A model generated the notes under the pieces. It worked only from the letters and a program-made list of their open reading frames with translations, had not been told where the DNA came from and did not search any database. From an uncultured Thiomicrospira sp. (lineage in GTDB: Bacteria; Pseudomonadota; Gammaproteobacteria; CAKMZV01), in assembly GCA_965195345.1 (NCBI GenBank), contig OZ239628.1, forward strand, positions 1,408,001 to 1,472,000: a DNA stretch of 64,000 bases, given 5' to 3'. Below are positions 2,048 through 5,384 of the stretch, piece by piece; position 1 is the first letter of the stretch, and each line of letters begins with the position of its first letter. The translations under genes were made by a program, and so were the position numbers.

Positions 2048-2125
2048 GGTGACATACTATACAATCTCGAAAACGCAGAAACTAAAAGATCAATGTTTTA
2101 GTATTGGAAAAGTGTAGATGCACCC

Positions 2126-2375
2126 AACACATCAGGTTTATCGCGTTTAATACGCCGCTTAGGTTTGATTCGTAGTTTGGCGCGCCATTTATAGAATTGA
2201 GCCAAATTCATCCCATGTTCTCGATACAATTCGAGAACAAGTATGCCTGCTTGATCTTATTTGAGTATTGCCAATATTTAACTGTCTGAATATCTTGATT
2301 TGCGCATAGAAAACTTCTATCTTGCTATTGTAGAATTTTCTACTCATCCCACAACTTCTTCTTTTGGGCATTACA
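2126..2375 (-). mobile_element. IS3-family insertion sequence remnant (left end, inactivated orfA fused to an orfB fragment)
   Basis: IS3-like end TGTAATGCCC at 2375. The frame from ATG 2307 reads MRKSRYSDS*ILAILK*DQAGILVLELYREHGMNLAQFYKWRAK (OrfA HTH, two TAA stops), joined at about 2176 to LRIKPKRRIKRDKPD (an OrfB motif). Confidence 0.85.
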
Positions 2376-2440
2376 ATTTGTTCGTTCGTTTGCTAAAGCA
2401 TGAATTACTTGTACTGCTCATTTTCCATCTTAACTCGTAT

Positions 2441-2510
2441 ACCTAACGCTTGAGCCCATCTTGCATTTTGCAGCGTAGTGGAAAATGTCAGGTGCAGAGA
2501 TTTCCTATGC
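2441..2510 (-). repeat. Degenerate integron attC site (single, no integrase nearby)
   Basis: Minus strand reads GCATAGG-AAATC-TCTGCACC-TGACATTTTCCACTACGCTGCAAAATGCAA-GATGGGC-TCAAGC-GTTAGGT. It has a perfect R' core (GTTRRRY), canonical R/L box spacing and an imperfect inner hairpin. The R'' box has lost its AAC and overlaps the endonuclease stop codon. Confidence 0.62.
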
Positions 2511-3218
2511 GTTTTTTAGCCTTTTTATCTCAACTTTAATTTTTTCTAAAACATCTTCATTAACAATTTTTTTTGTATTTCCTGTTCGTTTTGAAAATAC
2601 AACAAATACTTTGCCACCAAATTTTTTTTCAAAATTTTGAAAACTTGCACTCATTCTATCTGTTATATCATAATTCCCGAAATTTGCATTTGCGGTAATT
2701 GGCTTAATTTGTATTCCGAAAGCTTTATTACCAATTTTCCCGATGTAATCAATATCACCAGCGTGATCAAGCTCGGGGTCACTTTCTTCAAATTCAACTT
2801 CAGGAAATATTTTAGAAAGCCCGTCATTAATTACTGATTTTTCAAGTAAAAACCCATCATAAGTGCGTGCAATCGTAACTTCATAAATGTAATCTTTACA
2901 ATCTTGTAACGTTAATTCTTTAAAAGCTTCTGTCCATTCTGGGATAACTACTTCCGTAACCTTTGCATATAATCTTTCTCCAAGTTCTTCTAATGTTTCC
3001 TTTGTTACTTTGACACTATCTTTCTTCTTGGTATATGCTTTTTCAAAATAGAATTTTTCCCATTCATCAAGTGCTTTTGGTTGACAGTCTCTAATTAATG
3101 CCATAACGGCACCAACTTTATTTGGCCTTGTAAGTTGGTAGGTATTACTTGTATAATTTAGTACTTTTTCCTTTTTTCCAAAAGGTTTTGCGTATTTTTT
3201 AATTTGTTTTTTACTCAT
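2505..3218 (-). CDS. MjaI-family type II restriction endonuclease
   Basis: 237 aa with N-terminal LTRPNKVGAVMALIRDCQP..EWEKFY and a PD-(D/E)xK-type centre DIDYIG...GIQIKP. It is in an operon with a DNA methyltransferase. Confidence 0.82.
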   Translation of the reverse strand: MSKKQIKKYAKPFGKKEKVLNYTSNTYQLTRPNKVGAVMALIRDCQPKALDEWEKFYFEKAYTKKKDSVKVTKETLEELGERLYAKVTEVVIPEWTEAFKELTLQDCKDYIYEVTIARTYDGFLLEKSVINDGLSKIFPEVEFEESDPELDHAGDIDYIGKIGNKAFGIQIKPITANANFGNYDITDRMSASFQNFEKKFGGKVFVVFSKRTGNTKKIVNEDVLEKIKVEIKRLKNA

Positions 3219-3535
3219 CTTTTATTATCCCAGTTTTGTTGTAAAGCATTTGCTCTTCTTCTCACTCCTTTTGCTCTAGTGTTTAACTGATTTATTACTC
3301 TATTTAATTCTTGTTCATTTATGATAATCCAATAACCTTTTCTAAACATTAAACTGCCTATTAAAGAACCATGATTAAAAATCATATCTCGTATTAAATC
3401 TCTGACATGCTCATTTGTTGGGCCACCACTATCTAAATTTAAAGCATTTCGTATTTCCGTAGAAGATTTTCTATTGTCATAACCAACTGCATGCCGATTT
3501 AAGTAGCGTAGTATTTCCTGTTGTTCTTCATTCAT
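3215..3535 (-). CDS. Hypothetical small basic protein, winged-helix-like with a C-terminal amphipathic helix
   Basis: 106-aa ORF with 4-nt ATGA-type overlaps to both neighbours. Helix-turn-helix-like segment KSSTEIRNALNL...EHVRDLIRDM, followed by a GYWII wing. Confidence 0.7.
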   Translation of the reverse strand: MNEEQQEILRYLNRHAVGYDNRKSSTEIRNALNLDSGGPTNEHVRDLIRDMIFNHGSLIGSLMFRKGYWIIINEQELNRVINQLNTRAKGVRRRANALQQNWDNKR

Positions 3536-4824
3536 AATTGGGCTTCTTTAGAATAATTTACAAATCGGTCTTTATTTTTAAAATTTATGGTCTTGTCCAC
3601 ATCTGCAAAACCATTTTTTATTAGATGAGCATTGAGAAATGTTTTATTTTTTAAATACAAATAAACGAGAAGATTATTTTCTTCATCGTGTTTGGTTTCA
3701 TCATATTTTAAAAATACTTTTTGTCCTTTTGTTTTAAGTTTCAAAAACTCAATAGCTTTGCCGTTGGCTTCCTTTTTTTCTTTAACCCCAATTAGTCGGA
3801 CGATTAAATCATTATTTAATTTTATCAATTCAGGGCTTATTATTTCTTTTACCGAAAAATAGTCTTCTCGTTTGGTTGAACCATTTTGGTCAATTTTAGA
3901 ACCAAATTGTAATTTTTTAGGGTCTATTTTTTTGTCAAATTTATGAAAGTCTTTGAAAATATACGGAAATTTTTCTATCTCACTTTTAAAATCAACATCT
4001 AATTGCTCTTGTTTTAAAAATTTATAATCTAATTTATTAAATATTCCACCTTGATTTATTTCTAATTTTCTTTCAATATAAGGGATAAATTCAGGATTTA
4101 TTTCATATCCAACTGAATTTCGGTTTAAATTTCTTGCGGCGAGTGAAGTCGTTCCACTTCCAAGAAATGGATCAAGAACAGTATCTCCAACAAATGAAAA
4201 CATTTTTATTAATCTTTTTGGCAATTCCTCTGGGAACATTGCTATATGCCCATCTTGTCTAACTCCACCAAAGTCCCAATGACCATCAAAATATGTTTTC
4301 CACTCTTCTTTGGTCATTTTGGATCGCTCTTTTAGTTCTCTATTTGGTTTTATAGGAGTTCCAAGTTTTTTAAACAATAGAATAAATTCGTAATTAATTG
4401 ATAGAATGCCGTTTCTTGGCGTTGGATAACTACCCATCAAAGAAGCCCCACCAGTTGTATTTGAAGTTGTTTTTTTTCTCCATATGATAGCTCCCATATA
4501 GTCAAAGCCAATAGCTTCACAGAATTTTATTATTTCTGTTCTGATTGGTATTACTTTATATCTACCATAATAAACAGCTCTTGCGAATTGATCACCGATA
4601 TTAACGCATAAACGACACCCATTATTTAAAACTCTGTAACTTTCTTTCCAAACAAGATTTAAGTTGTTAATATATTCTTCATAACTGTCGTTATATCCAA
4701 TTTGAGTTTCTGTTCCGTAATCTTTTAATTGCCAATATGGCGGTGAAGTTATAACCAAATCAACCGACTTATTTTTCAATTCAGCCATACTACGGCTGTC
4801 TCCATTTATAATTTTATGTCTCAT
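3532..4824 (-). CDS. Site-specific DNA methyltransferase (N4-C/N6-A, beta class) with a C-terminal thermonuclease (SNase)-like domain
   Basis: Catalytic motif TSPPYW precedes the SAM motif VLDPFLGSGTT, with HIAMFPEELPKRLIK between them. The C-terminal ~110 aa (IVRLIGV...KAIEFLK...GQKVFLKYD...LLVYLY...FLNAHLIKNGFA) follow the SNase fold pattern. Confidence 0.92.
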   Translation of the reverse strand: MRHKIINGDSRSMAELKNKSVDLVITSPPYWQLKDYGTETQIGYNDSYEEYINNLNLVWKESYRVLNNGCRLCVNIGDQFARAVYYGRYKVIPIRTEIIKFCEAIGFDYMGAIIWRKKTTSNTTGGASLMGSYPTPRNGILSINYEFILLFKKLGTPIKPNRELKERSKMTKEEWKTYFDGHWDFGGVRQDGHIAMFPEELPKRLIKMFSFVGDTVLDPFLGSGTTSLAARNLNRNSVGYEINPEFIPYIERKLEINQGGIFNKLDYKFLKQEQLDVDFKSEIEKFPYIFKDFHKFDKKIDPKKLQFGSKIDQNGSTKREDYFSVKEIISPELIKLNNDLIVRLIGVKEKKEANGKAIEFLKLKTKGQKVFLKYDETKHDEENNLLVYLYLKNKTFLNAHLIKNGFADVDKTINFKNKDRFVNYSKEAQL

Positions 4825-5123
4825 TTTAAAATCTATTCTTTCTTCGTCTTTATTTATCCCGTCTTTACATTTAAAGATTAATCATCGCACTTATTTTACT
4901 ATTATTGTTTGTTATACGCGCTTTAGAAAAAGTCATTGAAGGCGGGGGGAACCTGCCTCTATTCTTTGAGATAATGGTACTGAATATATTGTATACCACA
5001 CCTTAGCCGTCACACTTAAAAGTAGAGGTTTCTCCTGTTAAGTTATAACAACGACGCGACTGTTTTACCATAATTCATTGTATCTAGTCAGTAAAGGTAG
5101 GCTAGGTACTAATTAATATGGCC

Positions 5124-5384
5124 TTATAGATACTTCTTAAACCATTTCCCCATCATATACACACTAATCCCTACAAGCGTATATGCAGGTATAAAAAACC
5201 ATAATGGATTCACCGATACTGGTGAAGAGAGGTACAAGAACATAATCAAATAAATGGACCGAGGTCGAGCAATATGCTTATTGATGTGAAATAGCCATGC
5301 AGATTCTCTGCTTTTAGCATAACGTCTCAATGTCCTCTCGACTAAGCCGTCTGCAAATGCCACTACGACTAGCGGCTTGTACAA
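5124..5384 (-). pseudogene. TIGR03747/DUF4400 ICE membrane protein, C-terminal fragment
   Basis: DGLVERTLRRYAKSRESAWLFH...LYLSSPVSVNP...FKKYL matches the characteristic C-terminus of the family (DGLVRRDLRR..GRES..YH...YLxxPxSxxP...FKKYL). The N-terminal two thirds are missing. Confidence 0.8.

Follow-up and report, generated by a model that had tools for sequence, protein, structure and literature searches.

A winged-helix gene as an optional, exchangeable member of an MjaI-type restriction-modification cassette in an uncultured Thiomicrospira sp.

The cassette and its three genes

The stretch of DNA analysed here (the window, 64,000 nucleotides (nt) at positions 1,408,001 to 1,472,000 of contig OZ239628.1, assembly GCA_965195345.1) comes from an uncultured Thiomicrospira sp. 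and carries a type II restriction-modification (R-M) system in which a gene for a protein of 106 amino acids (aa) lies between the genes of the methyltransferase (M) and the restriction endonuclease (R). Type II systems usually consist of M and R, sometimes with a controller (C) protein of the XRE type, and here a second family of small proteins, winged-helix proteins, has been recruited repeatedly into one R-M family. That R-M family itself is known; the part for which we found no description is the optional, exchangeable winged-helix gene between M and R. A preliminary description of the window had named the operon as its best candidate for an undescribed system. The literature searched, which did not extend to REBASE or subscription journals, gave no account of such a gene in type II cassettes, whether of the MjaI type or not.

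The three open reading frames (ORFs) are chained on the minus strand by 4-nt stop/start overlaps at 3532-3535 and 3215-3218, in exact agreement with the preliminary description, whose reading of the locus as a type II R-M operon is borne out by the Pfam and PADLOC matches of both enzymes. The features, with the sources of their assignment, are as follows.

3532..4824, minus strand: M, beta-class DNA methyltransferase of 430 aa with a C-terminal SNase-fold domain (Pfam, PADLOC)
3538..3861, minus strand: part of M encoding the SNase-fold domain, approximately residues 322-429 (Pfam, AlphaFold2, Foldseek)
3215..3535, minus strand: small gene, 106-aa winged helix-turn-helix (HTH) protein with a long C-terminal helix, lineage "type A" (AlphaFold2, phrog_2113)
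2505..3218, minus strand: R, MjaI-family type II restriction endonuclease of 237 aa (Pfam RE_MjaI, PADLOC)
2103..5122, no strand: inserted cassette of low GC content, about 3.0 kb, bearing all three genes (flanks in the related genomes G001 and G002, GC content)
4825..4925, minus strand: region upstream of M (comparison with upstream regions of related loci)

Stop/start overlaps are found again at both junctions across related loci, and the identity of synonymous codons rises to 0.74 immediately ahead of each downstream start codon (mean 0.55-0.58), which indicates that the overlap design is not a matter of chance. The small gene is under purifying selection: in the closest group (7 loci, 21 pairs) the ratio of non-synonymous to synonymous substitution rates (dN/dS) is 0.081, with 0.059 for M and 0.054 for R, which marks it as functional and protein-coding.

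M, which Pfam assigns to N6_N4_Mtase (E 5.8e-44), has its SPPY motif at residue 27 and its FLGSGTT motif at residue 220, SPPY before FxGxG being the beta-class order. Its residues 2-424 cover the 423 positions of the PADLOC MTase_II profile PDLC03259 end to end (E 1.6e-182). Its C-terminal domain is a member of the SNase group by sequence (Pfam SNase, E 1.1e-08, 36 bits with a cut-off of 21) as well as by fold. The AlphaFold2 (AF2) model of the last 140 residues, with a predicted local distance difference test score (pLDDT) of 80.5, is a beta-barrel with three helices, and Foldseek against the PDB matched it to the S. aureus nuclease (E 3e-8, template modelling (TM) score 0.66-0.74, root-mean-square deviation (rmsd) about 2.3 A). 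Profile and single-sequence searches of the domain against PDB sequences gave nothing significant. By eye, and against what we take to be the motifs of such nucleases, its acidic metal ligands look replaced, an impression that serves as a lead only. Since PADLOC type II profiles match M and R almost end to end, the combination of methyltransferase and nuclease domain is evidently an architecture already known among R-M enzymes.

R scores 95.6 bits against Pfam RE_MjaI (cut-off 22.7, E 3.7e-27, residues 18-190), and its residues 39-235 match PADLOC REase_II PDLC03450 (E 1.1e-82); profile and single-sequence searches against PDB sequences again gave nothing significant. With R above the curated cut-off and an adjoining M on the same strand that has catalytic and S-adenosylmethionine-binding motifs, the system falls within the type II MjaI family. 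Residues D151, D157, Q170 and K172 of R are unchanged in all 32 relatives, and R is putatively an endonuclease of the PD-(D/E)XK type; in the available part of PMC2441816, MjaI is tabulated ahead of the HNH section, in a section presumed to hold PD-(D/E)XK enzymes. MjaI recognises CTAG (available text of PMC2615612). By its family membership, the system of the window is probably CTAG-specific, with an M that would methylate cytosine at N4. According to the accessible part of PMC5867850, M.MjaI, M.MthZI and M.BfaI are beta-class methyltransferases that form N4-methylcytosine in CTAG and are 303-364 aa long. The window system resembles those of the MjaI/MthZI/BfaI type in its R above the RE_MjaI cut-off and its beta-class M, but differs from them in an M of 430 aa with a nuclease-fold C-terminal domain. 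Its R is likewise longer, with 237 aa compared to 193-194 aa in the canonical MjaI-type endonucleases (as in loci L017 and G183), to which it is about 20% identical. The sequence CTAG is scarce in the window outside the cassette (52 observed and 113.7 expected under a trinucleotide Markov model), which is not diagnostic because CTAG depletion is common in bacteria.

The locus is, as judged from sequence comparisons, a horizontally acquired R-M cassette. GC content is 0.27-0.33 across the three genes and 0.318 for 2103-5122, compared with 0.396 in the remaining window. The segments 1788-2102 and 5123-5351 lie 55 nt apart in G001, a genome of the same genus, and similarly close in G002, which bounds the insertion at about 2103-5122. 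A search of 40 relatives, of which 2 belong to the same genus, 2 to the same family and 36 to the same class, did not find the small gene. The closest relatives of all three proteins, at 80-90% identity, are found in metagenome-assembled genomes labelled Melioribacteraceae, Bacteroidales and Chlorobiota and in an isolate of Marinilabilia salmonicolor. A blastn search of the non-coding flanks of the cassette (2103-2504 and 4825-5122) against all loci gave no match.

An optional and exchangeable gene between M and R

In a census of metagenome contigs, queried with aligned nuclease-fold domains of M, the best 80 of 538 relatives yielded 65 interpretable loci with M followed by R. R stands directly after M in 47 of these (gap of at most 80 nt, mostly overlaps of 1-8 nt), a winged-helix homologue detected by tblastn lies between the two in 10, and another insert of 152-719 nt in 8; among the remaining loci, R was partly aligned in 6, no R lay within 2.5 kb in 7 and the flank was too short in 2. 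Two of the other inserts are a distant, 121-aa member of the winged-helix family (L105) and a decayed remnant (L088), and the gene is present in 12 of the 65 loci in all. Nine copies are intact, the others being short (L055), devoid of an intact ORF (L110) or the remnant mentioned. An ORF of about 240 aa fills the slot in four loci (L039:2907-3632, L048:2913-3632, L049:1680-2399 and L087:2327-3052) and is truncated in a fifth (L078:2340-2810), and 152 nt between M and R are unexplained in L091. The 240-aa ORF found no match in Pfam or NCBIfam; a motif seen in it by eye is faintly like that of GIY-YIG nucleases, with atypical spacing. In G001, M (79% aa identity) overlaps R (71%) by 4 nt with nothing between them, and this pair lies at another chromosomal site, beside pheS, rplT and rpmI. 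The question posed in the preliminary description, whether the small gene always sits between M and R, is thus answered in the negative, both among the loci selected by M and within the genus. The small gene is an optional member of the cassette, not a core part, and its product is probably no essential subunit of M or R.

At least four lineages occupy the slot, namely type A with a variant A', B (120-121 aa), C (about 111 aa) and D (100 aa), and the identities of M and of the small protein correlate weakly (r = 0.32; 30 loci, 435 pairs). In L021 and L105, M is 97% identical and the small protein 30%; between L013 and both L073 and L097, M is 93% identical and the small protein 34-35%. Between L013 and L097, the nucleotide alignment begins upstream of M, breaks off 15-20 nt short of its stop codon and resumes exactly at the start of R; the same backbone occurs with an empty slot in L072 and with another insert in L078. 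The start context of R is reused whatever gene precedes it. The small gene is therefore not only optional but also exchangeable, at boundaries that are precise to the gene. A similarity of about 25 nt flanking the small gene was considered as a target duplication and rejected, as it consists of this shared R start context only.

A second set of 27 genomic loci was gathered by relatives of the small protein at 55% identity or more. The order M (with SNase domain), small gene, R was found in 21 of them, and close homologues of the small protein do sit within R-M loci. In three further loci the contig ends after M and the small gene (L002, L019, L020), in one the small gene is disrupted and R truncated at the contig start (L010), in one ZIP-like transporter genes take the place of R behind M and an intact small gene (L025, 3724-5318), and one is arranged differently (L017). 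The small gene is disrupted in 4 of the 27, by nonsense mutations in L009 and L010, a frameshift in L026 and both in L027, and the ORFs of M and R are intact beside it in L009, L026 and L027.

In the differing arrangement of L017, an intact winged-helix gene (108 aa) precedes, by 36 nt, the gene of a methyltransferase of 371 aa in which Pfam finds the MTase domain alone. Convergent with these two is the gene of a canonical 194-aa MjaI endonuclease (RE_MjaI, E 3.7e-66), into whose start a 69-aa ORF extends by 4 nt. This ORF closely resembles the HTH_3 gene of G183, where the order is HTH_3 gene (Pfam, E 1.1e-11), R and winged-helix gene, convergent with M. The winged-helix ORF of G183 is 81 aa long from its first ATG, without the first helix, and the methyltransferase of this genome gave no match to the nuclease-fold domain query. 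C genes of the HTH_3 type were picked up by the same scan in L126 and L127. With these two arrangements, the small gene is independent of the nuclease-fold domain and no replacement for a classical C gene. A joint action of the small gene with the extra domain of M, suggested in the preliminary description, was rejected, given that the two occur independently: 47 of the 65 loci have the SNase-fold domain without the small gene, and L017 and G183 show the reverse.

Across 401 sampled Bacteroidia genomes, an MjaI-family endonuclease is present in 23 and the winged-helix family in 5. Three genomes (G041, G065, G183) have both genes, adjacent in each, and among the 378 genomes without the endonuclease 2 gave weak or distant matches to the small gene. 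Fisher's test gives p 0.0015 for this co-occurrence, a value that overstates the association because the genomes are related and not independent. The small gene thus shows a specific association with systems of the MjaI type, and does so in three different gene orders.

This association bears on the possibility that the small gene is a passenger, i.e. a gene of mobile elements that settled in the M-R junction, where an addictive, constitutively expressed operon secures its expression and retention, with a function that serves itself or the mobile element and not the R-M system. Such a passenger would fit the unrelated 240-aa ORF in the same slot, the gene-precise boundaries of exchange and the frequent absence or decay of the small gene, as well as the occurrence of the wider family in early modules of phages and integrative elements and promoters that are unaffected by the small gene (see below). 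On the other hand, the association is specific to MjaI-type systems over three gene orders, with M and R only 20-37% identical, the family is enriched beside MjaI endonucleases, and purifying selection on the small gene is on a par with that on M and R. We consider it rather unlikely that the gene is a mere passenger.

Fold and relatives of the small protein

The small protein matches no XRE/HTH_3 family, and its AF2 model (pLDDT 94.7, predicted TM score 0.81) is a winged helix, so that the earlier view that it does not look like a classical XRE/Cro protein stands. In the model, helices at residues 3-15, 25-32 and 42-55 are followed by a beta-hairpin (59-62/67-70), which contains the GYWII wing noted earlier from the sequence, and by a single long C-terminal helix (74-105), which had likewise been foreseen. 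The label "basic", given in the same description, suits the window copy with its isoelectric point (pI) of 10.1 but not the family in general, as nine relatives have pI values of 4.5-9.6.

Searches of the small protein against Pfam, NCBIfam and PADLOC matched no family, and profile and single-sequence searches against PDB sequences gave nothing significant. Its residues 6-100 match positions 12-101 of the 113 of phrog_2113 (E 1.2e-12), which makes it a member of a phage family without known function. Foldseek found no match of the model at E <=1e-3 in the PDB and 13 at this threshold among the predicted viral structures of BFVD, mostly uncharacterised phage proteins with TM scores of 0.65-0.80. 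The likeness to these phage proteins covers sequence and the full-length structure, but they reside in phage genomes, whereas the subfamily of the window was found only within MjaI-type R-M cassettes. An exhaustive search of cluster representatives gave 77 relatives at E <=1e-3, 14 of them at E <=1e-10; the 177 close homologues (105-108 aa) are all unnamed or "hypothetical", and no fused forms turned up in a search among longer proteins.

In a comparison with 48,161 chains by VIA-align, the best matches were to N-terminal DNA-binding domains, those of NiaR (Z 9.1) and BirA (Z 8.9), with an rmsd of 1.6-1.8 A over 61-62 residues, followed by ScpB (Z 8.3), Z-alpha domains and regulators of the OmpR/MarR type. 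The fold is that of the HTH_11 type, three helices and a beta-hairpin wing according to DSSP on the AF2 model. By sequence, the window protein matches 0 Pfam families at E <=0.01, HTH_11 is matched by 3 of 64 relatives (best E 1.7e-4), and HTH_11 is the nearest named Atlas cluster to a homologue whose own clusters are unnamed. As modelled, the small protein thus combines a generic winged helix-turn-helix and one extra helix. The HTH_11 domains of BirA and NiaR are structurally most like its core, but it has no ligand-binding or enzymatic domain and carries the C-terminal helix of 30 residues alone. Binding of DNA by the small protein is suggested by this NiaR/BirA-like core, the HTH_11 matches, an arginine in the third helix that is the sole invariant residue over the 64 relatives, and its neighbours in mobile elements.

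Such neighbours, genes for excisionases, repressors and replication functions, were found around distant relatives outside R-M loci. On a viral contig (L028), a 31%-identical homologue lies in an early operon between ORFs of 241 aa and 275 aa, near genes that look repressor-like and integrase-like by eye; in L123 a homologue lies amid small HTH-like and excisionase-like ORFs, and in a Bacillus megaplasmid another directly follows an annotated excisionase gene, opposite an integrase gene. The preliminary description had named homologues mostly outside R-M loci as grounds against its own reading; this applies in part to the wider family, whose distant members lie in early modules of phages and integrative elements, and not to the close subfamily. 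A tblastn search of annotated phages gave no match for the window protein or the L028 homologue, and scans of viral contigs for the small protein gave no relatives.

The long C-terminal helix also lends itself to a role as a protein-binding modulator, in which the small protein, like an antitoxin, would bind R (or M) by this helix and damp restriction during establishment or sharpen post-segregational killing. It presumably resembles type II antitoxins in its DNA-binding-type N-terminus, its C-terminal helix and the place of its gene, just upstream of that of a toxic partner and overlapping it; moreover, several lineages are acidic, and winged helices can bind proteins, as ScpB does. Gene order argues against a modulator of this kind, given that the small gene lies upstream of M in L017 and downstream of R in G183, and so do the 34%-identical variants beside R genes of about 90% nucleotide identity (L013 and L097), which disfavour a co-evolving interface; the lack of fused forms among longer proteins is weak evidence in the same direction. 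Predictions of a complex of R with the small protein gave an interface score (ipSAE) of 0.00 in both runs, made without controls, and count neither for nor against a complex. We hold a modulator of R or M to be unlikely.

Upstream region and possible role

Related cassettes of Bacteroidota share the arrangement TTTG, about 20 nt, TAnnTTTG at 30-40 nt before the ATG of M, which we take to be a promoter. In the window, the region upstream of M has a degraded copy of the Bacteroidota-type -7 box at 4870-4881, and a scan of 4825-5122 listed no sigma-70-like site for the minus strand. A direct repeat, TAAAGACG, is found at 4860-4867 and 4845-4852 with 7 nt between its copies, in the window only and not in related loci.

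Our preferred reading, which we hold tentatively, is that the small protein is a DNA-binding, probably dimeric regulator that tunes the expression or establishment of the cassette. This reading builds on the fold, on the usual roles of small DNA-binding proteins in mobile elements and R-M systems and on the association with MjaI-type systems. The core would be a two-gene unit of an SPPY methyltransferase with a nuclease-fold domain and an endonuclease of the PD-(D/E)XK type, in which the start codon of R overlaps the stop codon of whatever gene precedes it. The 106-aa gene would be an optional plug-in module encoding a BirA/NiaR-like winged HTH core with a long C-terminal helix, through which the protein would probably dimerise on DNA. 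It may then set, for example, how much R is made relative to M, or when, adding to classical C proteins and not replacing them. Of the three roles entertained in the preliminary description, the regulator is thus the one we infer, while nothing found speaks for a sensor or an obligatory subunit.

Several observations weigh against a regulator. In L017 the small gene coexists with a putative C gene of the XRE type, overlapping R, which would make a controller role there redundant at least in part. The charge of the protein is not conserved (pI 4.5-10.1 over the window copy and nine relatives), and the fold matches are to generic winged helices, cover residues 1-83 at most and include the protein-binding ScpB and Z-DNA-binding examples. 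Within M subclades, the regions upstream of M are near-identical whether the slot holds type A, type B, another ORF or nothing. No operator was found by comparison of upstream regions, a scan of synonymous sites or a search for inverted repeats, the small gene itself containing none of at least 10 nt. The peaks of synonymous-codon identity are confined to the 3' ends of M and of the small gene, are explained by the overlap of reading frames there and do not mark an embedded operator. Further, a lineage-specific site in the backbone is unlikely, since lineages 30-35% identical occur in backbones whose M proteins are 93-97% identical.

The lack of an operator also bears on the idea that the small protein replaces a classical C protein, activating and repressing a promoter for itself and R in the manner of C.PvuII with a different fold. 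In the accessible text of the 2025 review PMC12707154, C proteins are HTH proteins acting on their own promoter, and C genes typically lie directly upstream of R and overlap it, as the small gene of the window does. Loss of an activator would, moreover, silence R harmlessly, which fits disrupted copies beside intact M and R. With C.PvuII, C.BamHI, C.Esp1396I and C.Kpn2I, the small protein shares its encoding within an R-M cassette and its dispensability for the enzymes. However, classical C proteins are of the XRE type, whereas the window protein is a winged helix with no HTH_3 match, and neither an own promoter with a C-box operator upstream nor any operator-like repeat was found. As its ATG overlaps the stop codon of M, the small gene has no room for a promoter of its own. 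Its place with respect to the two enzyme genes differs between loci, cassettes with and without it share one backbone, and L017 has a putative XRE C-R pair as well. A replacement of the classical C protein is, on this evidence, very improbable.

By analogy with the winged-helix domains that read modified DNA in Mrr-type and DpnI-type enzymes, the M-R junction might be a plug-in slot for accessory genes whose winged-helix proteins read the state of the target DNA, e.g. unmethylated against N4-methylated CTAG. Such a reader would account for the persistence of the family beside CTAG-type systems in three gene orders and with M and R of only 20-37% identity, and for the lack of any visible lineage-specific operator in the backbone; we nonetheless regard it as distinctly unlikely. 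In the part of PMC12707154 available, winged helices appear only as the modified-DNA-binding domains of type IV enzymes.

If the small protein is a regulator, as we tentatively prefer, it would be a controller-like component with a fold that goes unmentioned among the C proteins in the accessible part of PMC12707154. If it were instead to read DNA modification or to bind the enzymes, it would add a layer to establishment after transfer. Natural variants with, without and with a swapped small gene exist, which makes the question directly testable by cloning.

Some further features of the cassette and its surroundings were noted. A conserved element, CGTTAC AAGCAAGC or GTTGGGTGCAAGGC, lies about 100 nt before the ATG of M in L002, L006, L015 and others, and some related loci share a further stretch of about 150 nt beyond it (alignment A3, about 100-250 nt upstream of M); the element could mark a cassette boundary or represent a repeat. 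Contigs from four sequencing runs are identical to the window and fragmentary, with no variant lacking the small gene among them. In run X1 the cassette forms a separate contig of 3127 nt (2073-5199), and in run X3 one contig agrees with the window up to the insertion boundary at 2102 and continues in unrelated sequence, which hints at an alternative junction in the population. About 400 nt between R and the insertion boundary are without explanation; they include a 60-aa ORF on the minus strand (2189-2371), downstream of R, with no NCBIfam match. On the other side, an 86-aa ORF (5124-5384, minus strand) has a match to DUF4400 that is limited to the final 79 positions (E 1.4e-17) and belongs to the host flank, not to the cassette, as 72-73% nucleotide identity is kept in G001 and G002. 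Related cassettes are often adjoined by other defence or addiction genes, including those of a ThsB-TIR protein, an EVE-domain protein and HigB and ParE toxins (neighbours at L086:1045-1512, L103:975-1433, L104:2624-2929, L090:84-299 and L017:2093-4982), the last segment encoding a putative large ATPase followed by a helicase-like pair.

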